Origin: Candidatus Moraniibacteriota bacterium
Lineage (GTDB): Bacteria; Patescibacteriota; Minisyncoccia; Moranbacterales; UBA2206
DNA: 64,000 bases
Direction: 5' to 3'
Assembly (NCBI GenBank): GCA_963775955.1
Contig: CAVZKT010000002.1
Span: forward strand, 292,944-356,943
Both the position numbers and the translations under genes were made by a program. The notes beneath the pieces are model-generated. The model worked only from the letters and a program-made list of their open reading frames with translations. It did not search any database and was not told the DNA's origin. Each line of letters opens with the position of its first letter. Position 1 is the first letter of the stretch. Below are positions 4,246 through 61,432 of this stretch, piece after piece.

Positions 4246-5536
<1,291 letters not shown>

Positions 5537-5547
<11 letters not shown>

Positions 5548-7092
5548 AATTCCTACAATTTTAGTTATTCTGGATGGTTACGGCATTGCCCCGCCGGGAA
5601 AAGGCAACGCTGTCACTCTGGCCAAAACACCGGTTCTGGATCGGCTGTTTAAAATTTATCCTTCCACGACTTTATGCGCGACCGGAACTTGCGTAGGGCT
5701 TCCTGACCGCAAGATGAGCGGATCGGAAGCCGGGCATATGAATATCGGCGCCGGCAGGATTGTTCCTCAGGACTCAAAATACATATCAGACAGCATTAAA
5801 GATGGAAGTTTTTTTATGAATCCGGCGCTGGTGGGCGCGGTTGAACATGCTAAAACTTTTAATAGCGATTTTCACGTAATGGGGCTAATGGGTAATATGG
5901 ATAGTCCGCATAGCAATCCGGAGCATTTTCGCGCTATTCTGAAACTAGCCAAAAGCAATAACGTCAAAGAGGTTTACTGCCATTTGTTTACCGATGGCAG
6001 GGATTCGTATCCCAAAAGCGCTCTGGAGCACTTAAAATATTTCCGGCAAATTATGTCCGAAGAAGGAATTGGAAAAATCGCGACGCTTTCCGGCACGATT
6101 TTACGCCATGGATCGCGCCAAAAATTGGAAAAGGCTGACGCAGGCTTATGATGCAATGGTATTCGCCCGCGGCGAAAAAGCAGGTTCTGCCGAGGAGGCG
6201 ATTGAAAAAGCTTACAAAGACGATTTGACGGATGAGTATCTTCCGCCGACATTTATTGAGCAAGACGGAAAGCCTGTGGTGCAGATAAAAAAAGACGATG
6301 CAGTCATATTTTTTAATTGCCGATCCGACCGGGCGCGCCAATTCAGCAAACTCTTTATTGCAATCGATGAAAAAAGCATTTTGAGCGATGATATGCCAGT
6401 AATCGATAAAATAAAAAATTTATATTTCGTAACACTGACCGAATTCGGGCCGGGCCTCGATGAACACACGGCTTTTCCCGGGACATACTATTTCCGCGAC
6501 ATTGCCGATGGCAGCCGGAAAGTTGAAACAGCTTTATATCGCCGAATCGGAAAAATTCGCGCATGTCACCTACTTTTTAAACGGCGGTTATGCCGATCCG
6601 GTTGATGGCGAAGAAAGAATGATGATCAAATCTCCGGTCGTTGATTCTTACGCTAAAGCCCCGGAAATGTCGGCGCAAGAAATAACGGATGTGGTTGTGC
6701 GGAATATCCAAAATGATGTCTATGATTTTATAACCATCAATTATGCCAACGCGGATATGGTAGGGCACACCGGCGATTTGCCGGCCACAATCAAAGCCGT
6801 GGAAACATTGGACAGGCAAATAGAAATTTTAGAAAAAATTATTTCAGAAAAGGGCGGAAATCTGATTATAACGGCCGATCATGGCAACGCGGACGATATG
6901 GTGGATTTTGAATCCGATCAGCCAAACACATTCCATACCAAAAACCCAGTGCCGTTTCTGCTGGTGGGCGAGAAATTCAAGGATAAAAAATTACGCGACA
7001 AGGGGGTTCTGGGCAACATCGCGCCGACGATACTTGATATAATGGGAATAGAAAAGCCAAAGGCGATGAAGGGAAAATCATTATTGAGCTAA
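5537..7092 (+). pseudogene. gpmI: 2,3-bisphosphoglycerate-independent phosphoglycerate mutase with two +1 frameshifts
   Basis: ORFs 5537..6151, 6069..6605 and 6460..7092 (frames 2,3,1) together give a full iPGM (ILDGYGIAP, RFYAMDRAKNW, AESEKFAHVTYFLNGG, ITADHGNAD); shifts near 6093 (ggc-a-cga) and 6478 (cccggga). Confidence 0.85.
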
Positions 7093-12700: not shown

Positions 12701-12835
12701 ACCCTGTTAAATAAATTTTGCTTTGGCAAAATTAAGATTTGAAAAAAATAGGGGAATTAAAAGATGAATTGTAACTATTAATAAAAATAAGTTGTTTCTA
12801 TAAAAAGTATAGACTCAAATCTTATTTAACAGGGT
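12701..12835 (+). repeat. palindromic GTTAAAT-class element (ACCCTGTTAAATAA ... TTATTTAACAGGGT)
   Basis: 14-bp perfect terminal inverted repeat at 12701-12714 / 12822-12835; inner hairpins AATTTTGCtttgGCAAAATT and TCTATAaaaagTATAGA; ends 2 nt before the ATG at 12838. Confidence 0.7.
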
Positions 12836-12837
12836 AA

Positions 12838-20858: not shown

Positions 20859-22034
20859 ATGGATAAGGCGGAGCAAAAAAGAATAGCCCTCACTGGCGGA
20901 GCGGCGGCGGCCGAGGCTTTGCGCCAGATTAATCCGGATGTAATGCCAATATATCCAATCACGCCCCAGACGCCGATTATTGAAACCTACGCCAAATTTC
21001 AGGCGGATCGCCGGGTGGACACCGAATTAATCACAGTGGAATCAGAGCATTCCATGATGAGCGCTTGCGTGGGAGCTTCGGCGGCGGGAGCGCGCACTGT
21101 GACCGCTTCCAGTTCGCAGGGCATAGCGCTCATGAATGAAATTTTGCCGATTGCTAGCGGCATAAGATTGCCAATCATGATGGTGGTTTCATCGCGCGCC
21201 CTTTCCGCGCCAATTAATATCCACTGCGATCATGGCGATATGATGAGCGCAAAAGATGCCGGCTGGATACAAATATTTTCCGAAAATGCCCAGGAAGCCT
21301 ATGACAACACTCTGATTGGAATGAAACTGGCGGAAAAAATAAGAATGCCCGTAATGGTGGCGATGGATGGGTTTATCACCTCGCACAGCGTCGAAACTTT
21401 GGAGCTTATCCCAGATGAAGCGGCGAAAAAATTTATCGGCGAATTCAAGCCAGCTCAATCACTTTTGGATTTTGATGACCCCGTGGCCTATGGGCCGGTG
21501 GGTCTGCCGGACTCATACTTTGAATTCAAAATTGACCAGGCGGAAGCGATGAAAAATGTTTTTCCGGAGTTCGCCCGCATCTCGTCTGAATTCCATTTGA
21601 TTTCTGGCAAAGCCTACGATCTCTTTGAAAGCTATGAAATGGAAGATGCGGAGCAGGTGGTGGTCGTGATGGGTTCAACTGCCGGAACGGCAAAAGAAGT
21701 CGTGGATAAGCTTCGGGTTGAAGGCCGGAAAGTCGGGCTCCTTAAAGTTAAATTTTTTCGCCCATTTCCCTATGAGGAAGTTGCCAGGGTTTTAGAGAAG
21801 GTAAAAAACATCGCGGTTATGGACCGGGTGATGCCCTTCGGCGCCTATCCGCCGCTTTACACTGAAATCGTAAACAGTCTATTCGAAATTCGAAATTCGA
21901 AATTCGAAATTCAATCATATGTCTATGGCCTGGGCGGCCGGGATATTTTTCAAAAAGATATCGAAAAAATTTTTGAGGACTTGATTGAAAATAAAATTTC
22001 CAAGGAGATAAAATATATCGGTAATAAAAAATGA
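20859..22034 (+). CDS. porA: pyruvate:ferredoxin oxidoreductase alpha subunit
   Basis: YPITPQTPIIE, ESEHSMMSAC; 391 aa; carries an in-frame heptamer repeat at 21881-21915. Confidence 0.9.
   Translation: MDKAEQKRIALTGGAAAAEALRQINPDVMPIYPITPQTPIIETYAKFQADRRVDTELITVESEHSMMSACVGASAAGARTVTASSSQGIALMNEILPIASGIRLPIMMVVSSRALSAPINIHCDHGDMMSAKDAGWIQIFSENAQEAYDNTLIGMKLAEKIRMPVMVAMDGFITSHSVETLELIPDEAAKKFIGEFKPAQSLLDFDDPVAYGPVGLPDSYFEFKIDQAEAMKNVFPEFARISSEFHLISGKAYDLFESYEMEDAEQVVVVMGSTAGTAKEVVDKLRVEGRKVGLLKVKFFRPFPYEEVARVLEKVKNIAVMDRVMPFGAYPPLYTEIVNSLFEIRNSKFEIQSYVYGLGGRDIFQKDIEKIFEDLIENKISKEIKYIGNKK
21881..21915 (+). repeat. tandem heptanucleotide repeat (ATTCGAA x4 plus one degenerate unit) in frame in porA
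   Basis: attcgaa attcgaa attcgaa attcgaa attcaat; translated FEIRNSKFEIQ. Confidence 0.9.
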
Positions 22035-22035
22035 A

Positions 22036-22138
22036 CCCTGTTAGAGATTTTTCTGACCTGACTGGGTTAAAATAAAATTATTAATAAATTTTCGGGTATT
22101 ATTTTTAAAATAATAAACTTGTAAAATCTCTAACAGGG
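22036..22138 (+). mobile_element. 103-bp palindromic MITE-like element (CCCTGTTAGAGATTTT ... AAAATCTCTAACAGGG) splitting the porB start codon
   Basis: 16-bp perfect TIR; 4-bp direct repeat TGAA at 22032-22035 and 22139-22142; old ATG at 22031 overlaps the porA stop (ATGA); new GTG at 22138. Confidence 0.75.
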
Positions 22139-23043
22139 TGAACAAAAAATTAACTGAAAAATTAGCTCCAGGGCATTCTACCTGCGCCGGCTGCGGGATC
22201 CCGGCAATATTCCGGACAGTTTTAGGCGCGACAGATGAACCGGTGATTGTGGTGAACGCTACCGGCTGTGGAGAGGTGACCACGACCCTTTACCCTTATA
22301 CTGCCTGGAAAGTGCCTTATATCCACAATGCTTTTGAAAACGCGGCCGCCACGGCTTCCGGAGTGGATGCGGCGCAAAAAGTATTGGAAAGAAAAGGGAA
22401 GATAAGAAAAAAAGCCAAAATTGTTGTTTTTGGCGGTGACGGGGGAACTTATGACATCGGACTGCAAAGTTTGTCCGGGGCGCTTGAACGGGGCCATGAT
22501 TTTCTCTACGTCTGCTATGACAATCAGGGCTATATGAACACTGGCGGCCAAAGGTCAGGGGCTACACCCTATGGAGCATCAACGGAAACAACCCCGGCGG
22601 GAAAAAGTGATATCGGAAATGAAATGATTCGCAAGGACATCATTCAAATTGTGGGAGGACATGGATTGAAATATATTGCCCAAGCGAATGTGGCGTTTAT
22701 TGATGATCTGGCGTTGAAGGCCAAGAAAGCGCTGGCCATGGACGGACCGCGATTTTTGCTGGTGCTTCAGCCTTGCACCAATCTTTGGAAATATCCGACG
22801 TCGCAATATGTCAATATCGGAAAGCTGGCTACTGAAACTAATTTCTGGCCGCTCTATGAAATCGAAGACGGGAATTACGTAATTAATTACGTACCTAAAA
22901 ATCCGAAGCCGGTGGAAGAATTTTTGAAAGGACAGGGGAGATTTAAACATTTATTTAAACCCGAAAATAAAGAAGTGATTGAAAAAATCCAGGGAATGGT
23001 GGATAAAAATTGGGCGGAGCTTAAGAAAGTATCTGGCATGTAG
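22138..23043 (+). CDS. porB: pyruvate:ferredoxin oxidoreductase beta subunit (TPP-binding)
   Basis: GHSTCAGCG, GGDGGTYDIG; begins at the GTG formed by the element end G plus the duplicated TGAA. Confidence 0.9.
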   Translation: MNKKLTEKLAPGHSTCAGCGIPAIFRTVLGATDEPVIVVNATGCGEVTTTLYPYTAWKVPYIHNAFENAAATASGVDAAQKVLERKGKIRKKAKIVVFGGDGGTYDIGLQSLSGALERGHDFLYVCYDNQGYMNTGGQRSGATPYGASTETTPAGKSDIGNEMIRKDIIQIVGGHGLKYIAQANVAFIDDLALKAKKALAMDGPRFLLVLQPCTNLWKYPTSQYVNIGKLATETNFWPLYEIEDGNYVINYVPKNPKPVEEFLKGQGRFKHLFKPENKEVIEKIQGMVDKNWAELKKVSGM

Positions 23044-34640: not shown

Positions 34641-35169
34641 ATTTTTTTTGCAATTATATCAACTGCACTAGTTTGTTCTTTAGTTAGTTTGATATTTTTT
34701 GTGTTTTGTTTGTGAATATTTGTGTTTTGTATTTTGTGTTTTTGTTTAACTCTCTTTGGAAGAAAGGATTTTAGGACAACTCCAAGAGGGGAGAGATAGT
34801 AATCTGAAATAAATTGGGCGAGTTCCAGTTGCTTTTTGTCTAAAAAATTTTCTTCCAAAACTTTTTCTATTTTTTTAAGCTGGATATTTCCAAAACGGCG
34901 GAAATCATTTCTATTGTCCAGCACTATGCCCTCAACATTTCTTTTAAAAAGGGGAATGGAAACCAGTGTTCCCGGAGAAAGTTTTTGGTCATGCAAATAC
35001 GAAAACGACTGGCTTCCGGAAAGAGGAAGGCGGGTTATGGGGGCGACATTGATGATAATTTTTGAGAGAAATTTTCGCATGGCTTTAGTTTAACAAAGTT
35101 TTGCCATACATAACAGGGATTACTTTTCACCGCCTTGAAAATATGCCAAAAATGGGCTAATCTAGGGAT

Positions 35170-47386: not shown

Positions 47387-48670
47387 TTACCCTTGATTTT
47401 TAGAAGAAATTTCCTGTTGGATAACTTCCAGCGCTTTGTCCAGCTGCGGGTCGCGGTTGTTGTCAAAATCTTCCTGGGTTAAATCCACTTCAATATTGGG
47501 AGTTATGCCCTCATCCATTATGTAGTCGCCATTAGGCGTCATCCATTTGTCCACAGTGATTTTTACGCTGGAATTTCCCGGCAAATCAATAAGTTCCTGG
47601 ACAGAGCCTTTGCCGAATGATTTCTTGCCGATGAGCTGGACGGCGCGGTTGTCCCGCAGGGCTCCGGCCAAAATTTCCGAGGCGCTGGCGCTTCCCTCAT
47701 TAATCAGGACTACCACCGGCAAAGAGCTAAGCCTGTCCCCGCCCGATGTATATAAGTTGTCTTTTTTGCCGGTGTTGTCTTCCTCGCTGACAACCAGCTC
47801 GCCCTTGGGGATCATCCGACTGGCTACGCTTACGGCCTTATCCAAAAATCCGCCCGGATTGTTGCGCAAATCTAAAACAATTCCTTTGGCGCTTTGGGAA
47901 ATTATTTGATTTGCAGCTGCGTCAAACTCCTTGGCAGTATCGTCGCCGAATTTGGTTATTTTCAGATAGGCGATGCCATCAGGCTTGAATTCCAGCTCCA
48001 CGCTTTTTATGGAAATAGTGTCACGGACAATGGAAATTTCCCTGACTCCATCCTCGCCCAGGCGCAAAACTGTCAATTTAACCTCTGTTCCTTTTTTTCC
48101 GCGGATCAGATCCACTGCTTCATCAATGGTGGTGTCAGCGGTTGTTTTGTCGCCGACTTTGAGGATTTTATCGCCGGCCCGCAAACCCGCTTTGGCGGCC
48201 GGAGAATCGGCCAGCGGAGCAATTACGGTCAAGATATTATCTTTGATTCCCAGTTCGGCGCCAATTCCTTCAAAGCTGCCTTCCAAATCTTGGGAAAAAG
48301 ATTTTGTTTCCGCCGGATCAAAAAAAGTTGAATACGGGTCATTGGTGGCGCGCAGCATTCCTCTGATGGCGCCATAAACCAATTTTTGGGCGTCCAGGGA
48401 ATTTTTATCCACATATTTTTCTTTTAGCAGATCCCAAACTTTCCAGAAAAGCGAAAAATCAACCGAATTTTGCGGAGAATTTTTATTGGTAATTTGCGTT
48501 TGAGCGAGCGGGAAGGACCGATTATCAGCGGGGGAATTTTTTCCTCTGGAATAACCCAGCCAAAAACTCCCGACTAAGAGAAAAACAAAAAAGAAAATAA
48601 ACAAATACTTATGCAGTAATTTGCGATTATTATCCAAAGACCGTGTCTGTTTTAGAGTTTCTTCGTCCAC
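47387..48670 (-). CDS. ctpA: S41 C-terminal processing peptidase (PDZ-containing)
   Basis: PDZ (AGLRAGDKILKVG) plus S41 core (GSASASEI..GKKSFGKGSVQ); start taken as GTG 48670-48668, regenerated by the element insertion (the track TTG start at 48688 lies inside the element). Confidence 0.85.
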   Translation of the reverse strand: MDEETLKQTRSLDNNRKLLHKYLFIFFFVFLLVGSFWLGYSRGKNSPADNRSFPLAQTQITNKNSPQNSVDFSLFWKVWDLLKEKYVDKNSLDAQKLVYGAIRGMLRATNDPYSTFFDPAETKSFSQDLEGSFEGIGAELGIKDNILTVIAPLADSPAAKAGLRAGDKILKVGDKTTADTTIDEAVDLIRGKKGTEVKLTVLRLGEDGVREISIVRDTISIKSVELEFKPDGIAYLKITKFGDDTAKEFDAAANQIISQSAKGIVLDLRNNPGGFLDKAVSVASRMIPKGELVVSEEDNTGKKDNLYTSGGDRLSSLPVVVLINEGSASASEILAGALRDNRAVQLIGKKSFGKGSVQELIDLPGNSSVKITVDKWMTPNGDYIMDEGITPNIEVDLTQEDFDNNRDPQLDKALEVIQQEISSKNQG

Positions 48671-48769
48671 CCCGTTAGAGTTTTCCAAAATTACAGGAAA
48701 TAATATTGGAATTGTAAAAAAATAATTAAGCGTAATCCCGTTTCAAATTTAATAAAAACTCTAACGGGG
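48670..48769 (-). mobile_element. 100-bp palindromic MITE-like element (CCCCGTTAGAGTTTT ... AAAACTCTAACGGGG) splitting the ctpA start codon
   Basis: 15-bp perfect TIR; 4-bp direct repeat (minus strand TGGA; plus strand TCCA at 48666-48669 and 48770-48773); old ATG at 48774-48772 directly follows the upstream TAG. Confidence 0.75.
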
Positions 48770-48774
48770 TCCAT

Positions 48775-49589
48775 CTAATTATGCGCGGGCAAATCTTTTC
48801 CCGCGTATTTTAGAAAATATTTAATCGCGCTTTGAATATGCAGGCGGGTTAATCTGTTAAAAAGTATCAGATTCAACATCCCCTTGCCGGCCGATCCCCG
48901 GCGATGGTAATGATACATTTTAGCTTCCGGATAATAAATTACTTTATATCCGTTTTCCCAAAATCTTCGGCACCAGTCCGTGTCTTCCATATACATTTGA
49001 AATCGTTGGTCAACCAGGCCGACTTTTTCAATGGCTGATTTTTTAATCATCATGGCTGAACCCATCAGCCAGTCAACCTCGCGGACTTTCCTGATGGTCA
49101 AAATCTTTCATTAAAAACCGGTCCAGATGTTCTTTGGCGAAAGGGCAATTTTCCCAGAATCGTCCGGCGGTACAAAATAGTAAACGGGAGAAAGAAAGCG
49201 AAAGCAGGACGGCTGGAATGTTTCATTGAAATTCAGAAGTTGCGGACCGATAATTCCCGCTTCCGGATGATTTTGGCTGTAATTCAAAAGACTTCCAATC
49301 GAATCTTTTTTGACAATAATATCGTCATTTAAAATTAAAATATATTCTCCCTGGCTCTTTTCAATTCCGGCATTAACCTCGCCTCCGAAGTGTAAATTTT
49401 TAGCGGAAGGCAGAAATATAATTTCCGGATAATCCTCTTCCATCATTAAGCGCTACTTTTTCTTCAGTTTCACTGTCAGCCACGATTATTTCATAATCCG
49501 AAAGACGTGATATTTTTTTTGATCGAATCAATGCAAACTCTGAGAAGCTCCGGATTCTTATAGCTGGTGATTATGATCGAAAGCTCCAT
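48775..49589 (-). pseudogene. GT2 glycosyltransferase with multiple indels
   Basis: MELSIIITSYKNPELL.. / DYEIIVADSETEEK / ..ILNDDIIV.. / ..FLMKDFDHQ / KVREVDWLMGSAMMI..EDTDWCRR spread over several frames; one shift lies in an 8-nt homopolymer (about 49515-49522, read 5'->3' on +: tttttttt). Confidence 0.75.
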
Positions 49590-50790
49590 TTATTTGGGTT
49601 GAATGTCCGATTGTTTGGGAAGAGTAAAAATATTTTTGGCCATCTCGCGGATTTTATCGTAATTGTCGCCGATTGGAAGCAGAATGTATCCGGTTTCCTT
49701 GGTTTGCGGCGGGTTATAAAGCAATCCTTCCTCGGAATTTTCCAAAACTCGCTGAAAAGTCTGCGGGTTTTGCATGCCGGTATAAAGCTCATAAAATCTT
49801 TTCATTTCCCATGGCTGCAGGTCGCTTCGGACATTGTCGCCCAGGCTGTTAAGAATGCCGTTTAATTTTCCAAAATCCGTCAGGGTTCCGGCGCTCAGTA
49901 ATTTTTCTTTAACCAGCTGGATAATTTGCTGCTGCCTCTTGGCGCGTTCAAAGTCATTGGAAGTTGCCCGCGAACGCGCGTAGCAAAGCGCCTGCTCGCC
50001 GGTAAGCGTTTGTTTTCCGGCCGGCAATTTAAAATCACCTCCGCATTCATTGTTGGGATTAGTGCAGAGCGGATAATTGGGCGGTAATTTTCCCCCGCTT
50101 GTTTTTTTTAATTTCAAATGTTCCGGTCGGCACCGTAAAAACATTTGGATCGCAAACATGCGGTTCATTGAATTGCATTGCTTCTTCAAAGGGCTGGTCT
50201 AAAGTTATTTCAATTCCGCCAATGGCGTCGATGAGTTGCTTAAAGCCCTCAAAGTTTATGCTTATGCCATATTCAATGGGAATTCCAGTGACATCGCTCA
50301 AAACTTTTTCCATTTCCGCAAATCCTTGTTTTTTGCCGTTTTCTTCGCCAGCCGCATAGACCGCGTTGATTTTTGTTTTATTTCCCCAGACCGGATTATC
50401 AATATACAAATCGCGCGGAACCGAAATCATGGAAATTTTATTTTCTTTGGGAACGATGCTTAAAATCATAATAGTATCAGCCAGTGTTCCGCCACCCGGG
50501 ATATTTTCTCCGCGCATGCCTAAAAGCACCAGATTTATCCGGCCGTCTTTTTCCCCTTTCAGCTCGTCGTTTACTCCCGGGAGAGAATGAATCAAGCTAT
50601 TAAATAGTCCGCCGCCGGAAATTTTATTAAGAATTCCGCCAGTTTTCCAGGCGAAAACTCCGCCGACAATTAGAATGATGCTGGCAATCACCGCAAAAAG
50701 TCGAAACCATTTTCGCTTAAAAAGTTTAACTTTCTTTTTTTCCGGTTTTTTTTGGTTACCGGAACAATCCTCACGTTCTAAGTAGGCCAT
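49590..50790 (-). pseudogene. LytR-CpsA-Psr (LCP) family protein with one +1 frameshift
   Basis: ORF 50059..50790 (INLVLLGMRG..TLADTIMILS..SVPRDL) continues in ORF 49590..50189. Confidence 0.75.
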
Positions 50791-50849: not shown

Positions 50850-50878
50850 ATTTTACTTTTATTTGACAATGATGTCAA
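50850..50878 (-). promoter_or_regulatory. consensus-like promoter for the LCP gene
   Basis: Minus strand TTGACA (50878-50873), 17-nt spacer, TAAAAT (50855-50850); the -35 is part of the palindrome TTGACAtcatTGTCAA and abuts the element's duplicated TTGA. Confidence 0.6.
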
Positions 50879-50989
50879 CCCCGTTAGAAGTTTTGGAAAG
50901 TTCTTTTTAATATCTAAAATATAAAGGTGAAGCCGCTTCGCTTAAATGCTTTTCTTAGGCATTATCTTTAAAATGAACTTCTAACGGGG
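50879..50989 (-). mobile_element. 111-bp palindromic MITE-like element (CCCCGTTAGAAGTT ... AACTTCTAACGGGG)
   Basis: 14-bp perfect TIR; 4-bp direct repeat (minus strand TTGA; plus strand TCAA at 50875-50878 and 50990-50993); one copy supplies the TGA stop of the GT4 gene, the other the -35 TTGACA. Confidence 0.7.
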
Positions 50990-52141
50990 TCAACTAAGAG
51001 AGTTAAAAATACAAATCACACCCCAGGCCGCTTTTTCCCAGGAAAATTTTTGCGCTTGCGATTGTCCCTTTTGTGCCAAAATCCCGCCTAAATTAGGATT
51101 GTCAAATATTTTCTGGATTTTACCGGCCAGATTCTCGGGGCTTTTTGGCTCGAAAAAAAGCGCGCTTTCACCGGCTATTTCCCGGTGCGGAGGAATATCC
51201 GAAGCAATAACCGGCGTGCCGGCCGCCATGGCTTCCAGAATCGGAATGCCGAAGCCTTCATAGAGCGAGGGAAAACAAAAAACACGCGCCCCCTTCATAA
51301 CGGCGGCCTTGTCATTCTCATCGATGAACCCCGGAAAAAAAACATTATTTTTCAAATTAAGTTTGGAAACAGTTTCGTCAATGCGCGGGTCAAAATTATG
51401 TCCCCGGCCGCCGGCAATGACAAGTTTCGCGTCAATTTTATGTTTTATTTTTGCGTAAGCTTCAATAAGGATTGGAATATTTTTTCTGGGCTGGAGCGTG
51501 CCGACGTATAAAATATATTCGTCCGGCAAAGCATATTTCTTTTTTACCGAGAGAATTTTTTCCGGCGAAACATCCTGGCGCAGAAAATCTTCTGAAACAG
51601 CGTTGTGGATCCAGGCGACTTTATCTCGGCTTGCCGGATAATATTTTTTTAATTCCTCAGCGGTAAACCGGGAAACCCCAATAATTTTATCCGCTCTTTT
51701 GAGAGACATCGGAATTAAAATTTTCAGGAAAAACAAGTCAGAAAACTTAATAAACTGCGAATAGACTTTAAAAGAAATATCGTGGATAATCGTTGCTATT
51801 TTTATGCTTTTTGGCACAAAAAACGGCGTGATATATTGAGTGAGGTATATATCCGCCGGATTTTTTCTTAAATATCGTGGCAACGTCCAAATATTCCATC
51901 CGAATTTGTTCCGCAGCAGCCTGGCCGCCGCAAGCGGAATAATTTCAAAATTGATTTTATTTTCAATTTTTAATTTTACTGCAATACTCTGTAGTATTGC
52001 AGTATCTGCTGTGTCGGTGAATAATAAATATTTATTTCGACTGTCGATTTTGGCGAGATTTTTAACCAAATTAAAAAACACCGCCTCATCACCGGTTCTC
52101 TTTTTTCCGATTAATCGAATGTCAATGCCGATTTTTACCAC
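50990..52141 (-). CDS. GT4-family glycosyltransferase
   Basis: C-terminal EGFGIPILEAMAAGTPVIAS motif; 383 aa. Confidence 0.8.
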   Translation of the reverse strand: MVKIGIDIRLIGKKRTGDEAVFFNLVKNLAKIDSRNKYLLFTDTADTAILQSIAVKLKIENKINFEIIPLAAARLLRNKFGWNIWTLPRYLRKNPADIYLTQYITPFFVPKSIKIATIIHDISFKVYSQFIKFSDLFFLKILIPMSLKRADKIIGVSRFTAEELKKYYPASRDKVAWIHNAVSEDFLRQDVSPEKILSVKKKYALPDEYILYVGTLQPRKNIPILIEAYAKIKHKIDAKLVIAGGRGHNFDPRIDETVSKLNLKNNVFFPGFIDENDKAAVMKGARVFCFPSLYEGFGIPILEAMAAGTPVIASDIPPHREIAGESALFFEPKSPENLAGKIQKIFDNPNLGGILAQKGQSQAQKFSWEKAAWGVICIFNSLS

Positions 52142-59015: not shown

Positions 59016-60957
59016 ATGCTTGAATTTATATATAACCAAATATTGTTTTATATCTCACTGGCCATAGTATTGTTTTTGCCCGGTTATTTTTTGTTGCTGG
59101 CTATTTTCGGCAAAAGCGGAAAACTTTCAAGCCTGGAAAAGTTTGTTTTGTCTTTCGGGCTAAGTATAATAATCACAGACATCCTGCTTATTTTTCTGAA
59201 TAAGTTTGGCATAATCATTAATAGAATTTCCCTGCTGGCGTCTCTAGGACTGTTTTTTCTTATTTGTTATTTAATTTACTATTTGCGTCGGAAAAAATAT
59301 GAGGTTGAAGAAACTGAATCAAGGCATAGCGGATATTCACGATTTCAGATATTGGCGATTGTTCTGATTATTCTTACTAGTATTTTTTTCCGCACCGCGC
59401 ATCTGGCGAAAAATATAACACCGAGCGCGACCGATCTGGGGCACCATATGTTCTGGGTGGAAAAGATCATCCAAACCGGAAAAATTTCCGACTTTCAAAA
59501 AGTTGACATTATTCAAAACGATGGGCATTACAGCATCAGCGAACCGGTGAAGATTGATGATTTTATCATTGGTGAGCATTTAATTTTTGCCGCGGTCGGA
59601 CTGATTTCCGGGGCAAGCGTTATCTCCACATTCCCGGTTATTGTTTTGTTTTTGATAAACATCATAGGTCTCCTGGCCGTCTTTATCCTGGCCAAAGTTT
59701 TTTTTAATTATCTTCCTTATGGAAAAACTATTCCAATACTTTCAATTTTATTCTTGGGCGTCCTTTACGCCCTTTCGGCTCCCCAGGCGAATTACATAAG
59801 CGGCGGGGTAATCGGAAACTTGATTGGAAATCTTTTTGCGCCAATGGCGTTCTATCTGCTATTCCGCGCTATCAAAGAAAATAACCCGCCATTTTTCGCA
59901 CTTGGCCTCTTGACTATTTTTGGCCTGGCTTATACCCATCACTTGAGCGCTTTTATTTTCGGCTTCGCGCTTGCTTTTTCTTTGCTTTTTCTGGCAGCGA
60001 TAAAAAGAAAAGAAATAATCGGAGAATTAAAAGAAAATATCCTCGCTTATTTTTTCGGCTCCAGTCGTTTCAATTCTGCTTTTTTGCGGACTGTTTTTCT
60101 TTTTTATCCACATGCCGGCTTATATAGAAAACCAGGCCGTCAAAAGCGTAATTGGCGATCCGTCAAGGACAACCAAAGAAGGACTGGCTTTCAGCCAGTT
60201 GCAATCCGTGGCCGGCGAGAGCCGCCTAATTCTGGGAATTGTCGGCATTGTTTTGCTGTTAGCCGGCGCTAAAAAATATCCTTATCAGAGCGCGATAATT
60301 TCCGGCTGGTTTTTTTCCATTTTTATTCTGTCGTGGAAGCCAACCCTTTTTCATATTGACATCCCCTCTTCCCGGATCGGAAATTATTTGATTTTTCCGG
60401 CGGTTCTGGCCGGCGCTTTTGCTGTCAGCTGGTTTTTTGCGAAATATATTTATGATCATCAAGCGGGCAAGATATATTTAGGCAAAAAATTATTTCTGAC
60501 TGTTGTGGCCCTTGTCTTTTTATATGTGCTAACCAGCGGACTTTTTGATGCTAATCAGTCGCTCGGAACCCCGCCATCCGGCAAAAAAGCCGTAGAAACA
60601 TTCGCGCTTTCGCGCTATCTGTCCGAGCGGATAAATTCCAAAGACGTGATTCTCAAGGATCATAACTATGTCCCGGCTGATTCCTGGATGAAAGTGTTTT
60701 TTTTGCGCGATTACAATTTCCCTTTTACCCGCGGACTTTTTTTCCGCTATTCCGGATCACAGAAGCGGGAAATGTGCACGCTTTGGATGATTTCGACGCC
60801 CAACTCGCCGGACGCTAAAAAGTGCTTTGCCGAAACCGGCGTGGATTTTATCGTCGTCAATCCTAATTATGACAGCGCCCAATTCAAAGATACAAAGAGG
60901 TTTTGGAGGGTTTACGCTTCGGACGCGGTGGATGCCTATTATTATCCCAATAATTAA
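59016..60957 (+). pseudogene. polytopic membrane protein, putative ArnT/PMT-like glycosyltransferase, one +1 frameshift
   Basis: ORFs 59016..60272 and 60112..60957 overlap in adjacent frames; more than 10 TM helices plus a C-terminal soluble domain. Confidence 0.45.
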
Positions 60958-60967
60958 ATTTTATGAA

Positions 60968-61070
60968 CCCCGTTAGAGTTTTTACAAAGCTGACTGGGTA
61001 AAATAAATAAGTAATATATTTTTCAAGTTTTATTATTTAAAGTAATAAGCTTGTAAAAACTCTAACGGGG
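60968..61070 (+). mobile_element. 103-bp palindromic MITE-like element (CCCCGTTAGAGTTTTTACAA ... TTGTAAAAACTCTAACGGGG) splitting a start codon
   Basis: 20-bp perfect TIR; 4-bp direct repeat TGAA at 60964-60967 and 61071-61074; shares the internal CTGACTGGGT(T)AAAATAAA with the porB copy. Confidence 0.75.
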
Positions 61071-61432
61071 TGAACAGCAATAAAACAATAGTCATTTTTA
61101 CGGTTATTTTTTTTCTGGCTAGCGCTTTGTTTCTGGCCTATACTGAAAATCGGCAATCAAACGAAAATCTGCAAAAAGATTGGTGGGTTTTATCCTTTAA
61201 TGATCCTAAAAGCGAAGATTTGAAATTTACCGTTGAAAATCATAGCAATGAAAACAATTTCCATTGGGAAATTTTAGTTGGCAAAAAAAAGACGCAGGAA
61301 GGTGATATAAAAATATTAAAAGGCTCCTCTTGGACATCCAATGTCCAATTAGATAACTTATCGGGAAAAATCATCATCAGAGTTTCCAGCGGATCAGACA
61401 AAAAAGAGATATATAAGAGTTTTAACAAATAG
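61070..61432 (+). CDS. membrane-anchored hypothetical protein
   Basis: 120-aa ORF; GTG start regenerated by the element; N-terminal TM helix. Confidence 0.55.
   Translation: MNSNKTIVIFTVIFFLASALFLAYTENRQSNENLQKDWWVLSFNDPKSEDLKFTVENHSNENNFHWEILVGKKKTQEGDIKILKGSSWTSNVQLDNLSGKIIIRVSSGSDKKEIYKSFNK

Follow-up and report, generated by a model that had tools for sequence, protein, structure and literature searches.

A palindromic element inserted at the porA/porB junction of a Candidatus Moraniibacteriota genome and its probable place in a multi-phylum family of miniature inverted-repeat transposable elements

A 64,000-nucleotide stretch of the genome of Candidatus Moraniibacteriota bacterium (assembly GCA_963775955.1, contig CAVZKT010000002.1, positions 292,944 to 356,943), hereafter the window, contains a porG-porD-porA-porB operon, as assigned with Pfam, in which porG, porD and porA are intact and a palindromic element of 103 bp, named c1, lies between porA and porB. 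The porA gene (20859..22034, plus strand) ends with the TGA of 22032-22034, which overlaps an old porB start codon, the ATG of 22031-22033, in the four-base arrangement ATGA. Within this overlap sits c1 (22036..22138, plus strand), flanked on the left by TGAA at 22032..22035, which retains the porA stop codon and, with A22031, the old ATG, and on the right by a second TGAA at 22139..22142. The porB gene, encoding the beta subunit of pyruvate:ferredoxin oxidoreductase (301 aa, Pfam TPP_enzyme_C), occupies 22138..23043 on the plus strand and starts at a regenerated GTG (22138-22140) made up of the last G of c1 and the TG of the right TGAA; this GTG is the sole canonical in-frame start before the conserved N-terminus. 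Because the terminal G and the right TGAA yield GTG-AAC, the PorB sequence is unchanged. Comparison of the two arms revealed terminal inverted repeats (TIRs) CCCTGTTAGAGATTTT (22036..22051) and AAAATCTCTAACAGGG (22123..22138); counting the flanking A and T, the arms reach 17 nt (22035-22051 and 22123-22139) and are 100% complementary. The old ATG opens an upstream open reading frame (uORF) of 14 codons, MNPVRDFSDLTGLK (22031..22075, plus strand), whose stop codon falls inside the hairpin, 62 nt before the GTG. Excision of 22036-22138 together with one TGAA gives exactly ATGAAC, as in orthologues.

Relatives of the gene were collected by a metagenome scan with PorB, which yielded 80 related loci (369 kb), and the comparison of gene starts was limited to the 59 loci whose match begins at residue 1. 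All 59 orthologues, 51-79% identical to PorB, begin directly with ATGAAY (most), ATGGAC or GTGAAC and carry no element, and their starts often lie one to a few bases past the porA stop. Their N-termini are M-N-K-K-L-T-E-K-L-A-like, with which MNKKLTEKLA of the window PorB agrees. Across the 80 related loci the c1-type element was absent, except in L120, a second assembly with the identical insertion. Judged from this sequence comparison, c1 is an insertion and not a conserved leader, since the orthologues start at an uninterrupted start codon without the element; the conserved upstream leader, which an earlier note on this DNA had considered as the alternative, was not found in porB relatives. 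Among the window copies of the element, an empty site was found for c1 only. Exact-protein look-ups of PorB and of the gene beside copy c4 (described below) gave occupied contigs only and no polymorphic empty allele, and those with the genes at copies c2 and c3 returned no record at all. A search of the whole window against Rfam 15 at the gathering threshold gave two tRNAs only, and the region 21950-22250 had no credible match at E <= 1; an Rfam RNA family was rejected, there being no credible covariance-model match to the element region.

The 3' end of porA contains a perfect 7-bp tandem repeat (ATTCGAA, 4.6 units, 21881-21912), whose translation is FEIRNSKFEIQ, and similar GAAATTC/GGAAATT repeats occur between porA and porB in the relatives L160, L165, L166, L158 and L170.

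The window has eight occurrences of the end motif CCCYGTTAGAG, one mismatch being allowed, which form four pairs; 0.62 occurrences would be expected. All four copies delimited in this way have exact 4-bp flanking repeats and perfect TIRs of 15-21 nt, and each lies codon-exact on a gene boundary (4/4). Copy c4 (103 bp, 60968..61070, plus strand; TGAA at 60964-60967 and 61071-61074) shares the subfamily and orientation of c1; its site is ATGAA-C, the old ATG at 60963 opens the uORF MNPVRVFTKLTG, and the GTG at 61070 starts a 120-aa open reading frame (ORF). Copy c2 (100 bp, 48670..48769, minus strand; TCCA, or TGGA on the minus strand, at 48666-48669 and 48770-48773) occupies the site ATGGA-C, where the old minus-strand ATG (48774-48772) opens a uORF of 27 codons and the adjacent S41 peptidase gene starts at GTG 48670-48668 (or TTG 48688). 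Copy c3 (111 bp, 50879..50989; TCAA at 50875-50878 and 50990-50993) is located at a stop codon, its right TCAA holding the TGA (50990-50992, minus strand) of a glycosyltransferase gene (50990..52141). The interiors of the window copies are unrelated; only c1 and c4 are alike, with two stem differences, each compensated in the opposite arm. The earlier note had described c1 as an insertion with a TGAA duplication, which regenerates a GTG and leaves the old ATG to open a 14-codon uORF closing inside the hairpin, and had counted four family copies in the window, three of them (c1, c4 and c2) on ATG-RAC starts; this description was confirmed throughout.

Further members were searched for in one genome per species with the pattern ACCCYGTTAGAR-N55-85-YTCTAACRGGGT, which fixed an A before CCCC and a T after GGGG. 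The scan recovered at least 119 family loci in other genomes, with hosts among many Patescibacteria lineages, Omnitrophota, Planctomycetota, Nitrospirota, KSB1, Gammaproteobacteria and others, as well as deltaproteobacterial lineages and Desulfobacterota-type metagenome-assembled genomes (MAGs). What the family has in common is limited to about 13 bp of the ends, CCCCGTTAGARNN; the elements are 77-111 bp long, their interiors are unrelated, and they contain only short incidental ORFs. Over 131 copies the modal perfect TIR was 13 bp, with positions 12-13 variable yet complementary. Viral contigs hardly contain the family: the 14-mer end gave single, chance-level matches there, and the paired pattern one viral locus. 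We found no description of the family in the literature on MITEs (miniature inverted-repeat transposable elements) in Patescibacteria, and a literature text search with the end sequence returned unrelated oligonucleotides only, the match from Porphyromonas gingivalis being an engineered bulge oligonucleotide. Small size, absence of coding capacity, TIRs, a duplication of fixed length, dispersed copies and an empty site are all features of MITEs, and we consider it likely, taking this reading as a whole, that the element is a non-autonomous DNA transposon of that kind and belongs to a previously undescribed multi-phylum family. It should be mentioned that in locus L006 inverted element copies (2166-2259 and 4941-5034) with inverted flanks bracket a 2.7-kb segment coding for a 686-aa protein; the same flanks are also present in L015 and L031, pointing to a repeat unit that is larger and either composite or invertible.

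Duplications were scored in the 127 copies located away from locus edges, and 90 of them had identical 4-bp flanks. Most of these were TTTA/TAAA (47), TGAA/TTCA (18) or TCAA/TTGA (16), followed by TCCA/TGGA (4), TAGA/TCTA (3), TTAA (1) and CGAG (1). At 88 of the 90 sites the duplication was preceded by a purine or followed by a pyrimidine. The oriented target consensus is R-T-V-A-A, with no preference visible further out, and the commonest 5-bp targets, GTAAA, ATAAA and GTCAA, are not start codons.

Positions relative to genes were classified with crude ORF models on element-free reconstructions of the 90 exact-duplication copies, and the expectation was derived from random sites with the same 4-mer. 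Copies inside genes were depleted (20 observed vs 70.9 expected), and many of those scored as inside are no more than a few codons from one end of an ORF. In contrast, copies were enriched between genes (45 vs 15.8), at start codons (15 vs 1.4) and at stop codons (10 vs 0.9). Where the target was RTGRA, 14 of 21 copies were at start codons; the expectation is 1.6 when every such site is included and 8.2 when the choice is confined to non-coding and boundary sites of the same loci (P ~0.006). Furthermore, six copies in four genomes (L008:3026-3105 and 6121-6200; L038:6334-6425 and 6918-7021; L087:641-746; L114:1019-1116) are inserted exactly at the prepilin cleavage motif G/F-T-L-I-E of pilin-like genes (GG-TTTA-C). 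At these sites the terminal GGG rebuilds Gly(-1), so that the leader peptide is merely longer, and the upstream copy reads G-F-T-P-L-E. As an aside, TTTA joined to the CCCT variant of the end would encode F-T-L-L-E, the pilin consensus, which may be accidental or may hint at how the ends arose.

A short target motif, of which ATG-AA and ATG-GA are instances, and the loss of gene-breaking insertions explain most of the start-codon pattern. Two of the explanations offered in the earlier note can be judged by these figures. Survivorship was supported, jointly with the target motif, by the depletion in gene interiors and the enrichment at starts, stops and prepilin sites. The proposed preference for RTKRAC was right in that a short target motif exists; the motif is R-T-V-A-A, however, and a C following the duplication is no general feature of it. 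The copies in other genomes, to which the note had pointed for comparison, carry direct repeats (90/127) and are enriched at start codons.

The location of copies might, alternatively, reflect target choice and not survival, if the transposition machinery actively sought out translation-start regions, with ATG-RA in a setting that is A/T-rich, unstructured or special for transcription. Occupancy of ATGAA at start codons (12/207) as against intergenic ATGAA (2/432, pooled control) favours such a choice, as do the excess in the own-locus comparison (14 observed, 8.2 expected) and the window itself, whose three TG-initial targets are without exception start codons. Intergenic DNA, which served as the control class, is not neutral, however; no preference extends beyond the 5-bp R-TNNA motif, and the commonest targets are found elsewhere than at start codons. 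Enrichment is also seen at stop codons and in prepilin leaders, as selection predicts. We consider active targeting unlikely.

How genes survive the insertion was followed in 18 copies from 16 genomes that split an NTG start before a long ORF, and in all of them (18/18) a GTG is regenerated. The protein is unchanged because a TG-initial duplication following the terminal G always gives GTG plus the original second codon. Stop codons are retained because a duplication beginning TAA-A, TGA-A or TAG-A leaves the stop in the gene-facing copy. Reading from the old start, the 18 copies begin with M-(N/D)-P-V-R or V-N-P-V-R. Four of them are in the fused frame and read through into the gene (...S-N-G-V-N...), three in the second frame stop at the TAA of the right-end TCTAAC, 4 nt before the GTG, and one in the third frame stops at a GTGA overlapping the GTG; the remaining ten, with c1 among them, stop earlier in the A/T-rich interior. 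Separately, elements translated in frame inside predicted proteins (NPVR...F-L/S-T/N-G), or short versions of them, were noted in L111:4925-6463, L107:4820-5995 and L080:569-934, a situation similar to that of Rickettsia palindromic elements.

The uORF and hairpin had also been proposed in the earlier note as a co-opted leader-peptide or translational control device for porB and other genes. In c1 the GUG is indeed sequestered in the 17-bp stem, with the uORF overlapping the left arm, and c1 and c4 share not only subfamily and orientation but also the beginning of the uORF, with their two stem differences compensated in the opposite arm. Nevertheless, over the 18 start-codon copies the uORFs range from 6 to 34 codons, and the position of their stops varies between an overlap with the GTG and a distance of 87 nt ahead of it. 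Four of these copies have an in-frame read-through, and the interiors are unrelated even within the window. Moreover, the genes concerned are functionally unrelated, and porB orthologues do without such a leader. With uORF length, stop position and interior all varying, the idea found no support, and we regard it as quite improbable.

In the case of porB itself, the RNA fold of the c1 region has a free energy of -33 kcal/mol (z = -5.5), with the G and U of the GUG paired in the stem, and the GTG is without a properly spaced Shine-Dalgarno sequence. An outward promoter towards porB was also considered and discarded, no promoter-like site being found on the plus strand within the element. The old ATG keeps its native context, including the ATGA overlap with porA. 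On the most economical model, ribosomes finishing porA would reinitiate on the uORF via the old ATG; in translating it they would open the 17-bp stem from its left arm and free the right arm with the GTG. Translation of porB would thereby remain coupled to that of porA, probably at lower efficiency, and it probably depends on ribosomes reading from porA into the uORF. We infer both the PorB start position and the uORF coupling from the nucleotide sequence; hairpin processing is an alternative to the coupling model.

Another reading would be that the insertion is mildly deleterious or inactivating and was fixed by drift, the GTG being incidental and PorB made poorly or not at all. The poor setting of the GTG, which lacks a properly spaced Shine-Dalgarno sequence and is placed in a strong stem 62 nt past the uORF stop, agrees with this, and the same insertion in the second assembly L120 is consistent with fixation. 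On the other hand, porB is full length and 51-79% identical to its orthologues, with a conserved N-terminus, porG, porD and porA are intact, and the arrangement recurs in 16 genomes at long intact ORFs. The intact conserved ORF and the intact partner subunits argue that porB is still in use, and fixation of a damaging insertion appears to us very doubtful.

As to the origin of the arrangement, the element inserted into the ATGA overlap of porA and porB with TGAA as target, and a DDE transposase making 4-bp staggered cuts may have mobilised it in trans, our best guess being a member of the piggyBac/IS1380 superfamily. A DDE-type enzyme acting in trans is suggested because exact 4-bp duplications of many different sequences are combined with true TIRs. 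Copies would then persist mainly at starts, stops and prepilin leaders, where genes stay whole thanks to the duplication and the G-rich terminus; in gene-dense genomes this amounts to survivorship among insertions at a short target motif. A broader proposal would see a cross-phylum MITE superfamily, moved by a prokaryotic piggyBac/IS1380-like transposase, inserting in fixed orientation at R-TNNA and equipped with coding-compatible termini; this we put forward tentatively, as a possibility on the less probable side. If it holds, the terminal G(GG) and the T-initial duplication rebuild GTG starts and the prepilin Gly(-1), the duplication preserves stops, and in the two non-fused frames a TAA or an overlapping GTGA comes from the right end. 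Insertion exactly at a gene start would in that case be nearly neutral, and the element could colonise streamlined genomes in which intergenic space is scarce.

Several observations weigh against the preferred reading or limit it. No transposase-like ORF was enclosed by paired ends 0.3-5 kb apart, either in the window or in the at least 119 loci, and in L080, L107, L021, L006, L092, L097, L093, L070, L111 and L002 the ORFs located between ends or next to single ones were all ordinary genes. A tblastn search of the collected loci with the ISEcp1 transposase gave no match, and a protein database search with the same query found only ISEcp1-like proteins (>=83% identity). Mobility in trans is accordingly putative, and the piggyBac/IS1380 link a resemblance. 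Position classes depend on crude ORF calls, and after motif and survivorship have been modelled there is still a ~1.7-fold excess at start codons (P ~0.006), which could be due to a context preference or to 'intergenic' DNA not being neutral. The T..A of the duplication was partly imposed by the fixed A and T of the scan pattern; nonetheless the 4-bp duplication is real and T..A a preference, because the window copies were not under this constraint and a copy outside it (L063:4154) has the duplication CGAG/CGAG.

Two more points of this kind concern orientation and flanks. Members of a subfamily with exact duplications share one orientation relative to the asymmetric target in ~10 of 11 informative pairings; L012, L023, L053, L082, L088, L112 and L118 form one such single-orientation subfamily (for example, always R-TAAA), and L019/L035/L104, L014/L056, L107/L108 and c1/c4 are other same-orientation groups. 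This suggests that insertion is orientation-specific despite the symmetric ends, which is unusual for a DDE element with symmetric TIRs. In addition, about nine copies in unrelated genomes have non-matching flanks of the form TTTA-element-TGAA (L001:2728, L003:7007, L005:1109, L053:1183, L059:1253, L062:1084 and L086:1130, and in reverse form L033:1177 and L072:7033). The converse pair was never found, and one mutation in a duplication does not account for these flanks.

Oriented insertion at an asymmetric short target, the recurrent class with non-matching flanks and the overall hairpin shape would all suit an element that is no DDE-type MITE and moved as single-stranded DNA by a Y1/HUH enzyme, either as an IS200/IS605-derived palindromic element or as a REPIN mobilised by RAYT. 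Such systems do not make exact 4-bp duplications of many sequences, as seen in ninety copies, and the elements have true TIRs without separate subterminal hairpins, the 13-bp end itself not being palindromic; the empty site likewise fits a simple duplication model, and this route is very improbable. Weakest of all, the notion that the element belongs natively to the por operon as its conserved leader or attenuator has only the position between porA and porB in its favour and is practically eliminated, since the element is missing at 59 orthologous junctions and in 369 kb of related por loci, and identical ends are found next to unrelated genes, both in the window and in over 100 other genomes.

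Some other features of the window may be added. A 133-bp palindromic element (12701..12833), whose ends CCCTGTTAAATAA and TTATTTAACAGGG are related to those of the family but not the same, has the flanks TTCA and TAAA, with no exact duplication, and ends 2 nt upstream of the ATG at 12836; it may be a decayed relative or belong to a sister family. An inverted-repeat pair of ~105 bp at 34755-34859 (arms TTTGGAAGAAAGGATTTTAG and CTAAAAAATTTTCTTCCAAA, 85% complementary) has ends unrelated to those of the MITE family. The overlapping ORFs 59016..60272 and 60112..60957 (together 59016-60957) correspond to a single gene of 646 aa (DUF1616/DUF6541) in L322, another assembly of the same organism, and the intact gene there implies a frameshift or an assembly error in the window. 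Between c2 and c3, a family-2 glycosyltransferase gene appears split into two ORFs (48775..49101 and 49111..49446), as does a LytR/CpsA/Psr gene (50059..50790 and 49590..50189), which suggests frameshifts or pseudogenes.

Under the preferred reading of c1 as a MITE, the case shows to the base how a selfish element persists in a gene-dense genome with little intergenic space: insertion into a four-base stop/start overlap leaves both porA and porB formally intact. The understanding of pyruvate:ferredoxin oxidoreductase itself is unchanged by this finding. For annotation, MAG genes with a GTG start after a spacer of ~100 bp may be interrupted ATG genes, and short N-terminal extensions of the type NPVR... 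or ...SNGV may be element-derived. Conservation of 13 bp only over many uncultivated phyla points to a widespread transposase; should this prove to be a prokaryotic relative of piggyBac, it might be of interest as a tool, as such enzymes can excise precisely.

Among known systems, integron attC sites are imperfect palindromes that carry RYYYAAC on the 5' side and GTTRRRY on the 3' side; they were rejected as a candidate, because the present elements show the opposite order, with GTTAGAR 5' and YTCTAAC 3', and have flanking duplications. IS200/IS605-derived elements and REPINs were set aside on the exact 4-bp duplications, the true TIRs and the non-palindromic 13-bp unit. The Correia element, with its TA duplication, ~26-bp TIR and length of 100-155 bp, is distinct by description, given the 4-bp TNNA duplication and ~13-bp TIR found here. 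The family nonetheless resembles Correia/NEMIS of Neisseria, ERIC and the pneumococcal BOX/RUP/SPRITE elements in being ~100 bp long, non-coding, bounded by TIRs, associated with target duplication and dispersed at gene borders. It differs from them in its ends (CCCCGTTAGAR), in the 4-bp TNNA duplication, in the terminal G that rebuilds start codons, in the occurrence in several phyla and not in one genus, and in the conservation of ~13 bp with unrelated interiors. Rickettsia palindromic elements (RPE) are selfish palindromes that coding sequences tolerate, and in the present family, too, some copies are translated in frame, for example those reading NPVR...SNGV in L037, L061, L075, L119 and L111; unlike RPE, by description, most copies here are at gene edges or between genes, with clear duplications and conserved ends.

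The plant Tourist and Stowaway MITE superfamilies are likewise recognised only by a characteristic duplication and a short TIR that is conserved, their interiors being unrelated across hosts, whereas the present family has prokaryotic hosts, another TIR and duplication and, presumably, another transposase superfamily. Terminal repeats of 13 bp, CCCTAGAAAGATA, are typical of piggyBac; IS1380 elements in ISfinder have 4-5-bp repeats and CC ends, and the left end of ISEcp1 is CCTAGATTCTAC. The piggyBac duplication is TTAA, with the variants TAAA, TCAA and GTAA, and IS1380 transposases are its prokaryotic outgroup (PMC10813416). A 4-bp T/A-rich duplication and TIRs beginning with CCC are shared with piggyBac/IS1380; unlike in piggyBac, the target is TNNA with a 5' purine and not TTAA, and insertion is apparently orientation-specific. 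Bacterial MITEs are known from gene borders, where they are co-transcribed as hairpins and sometimes fused to the ends of ORFs (PMC3184786). A MITE at a gene border is, in this respect, a known kind of element and not a new mechanism; what is new here is the family, its spread across phyla with ~13 bp conserved, the TNNA duplication and the codon-exact rebuilding of starts, stops and the prepilin site.

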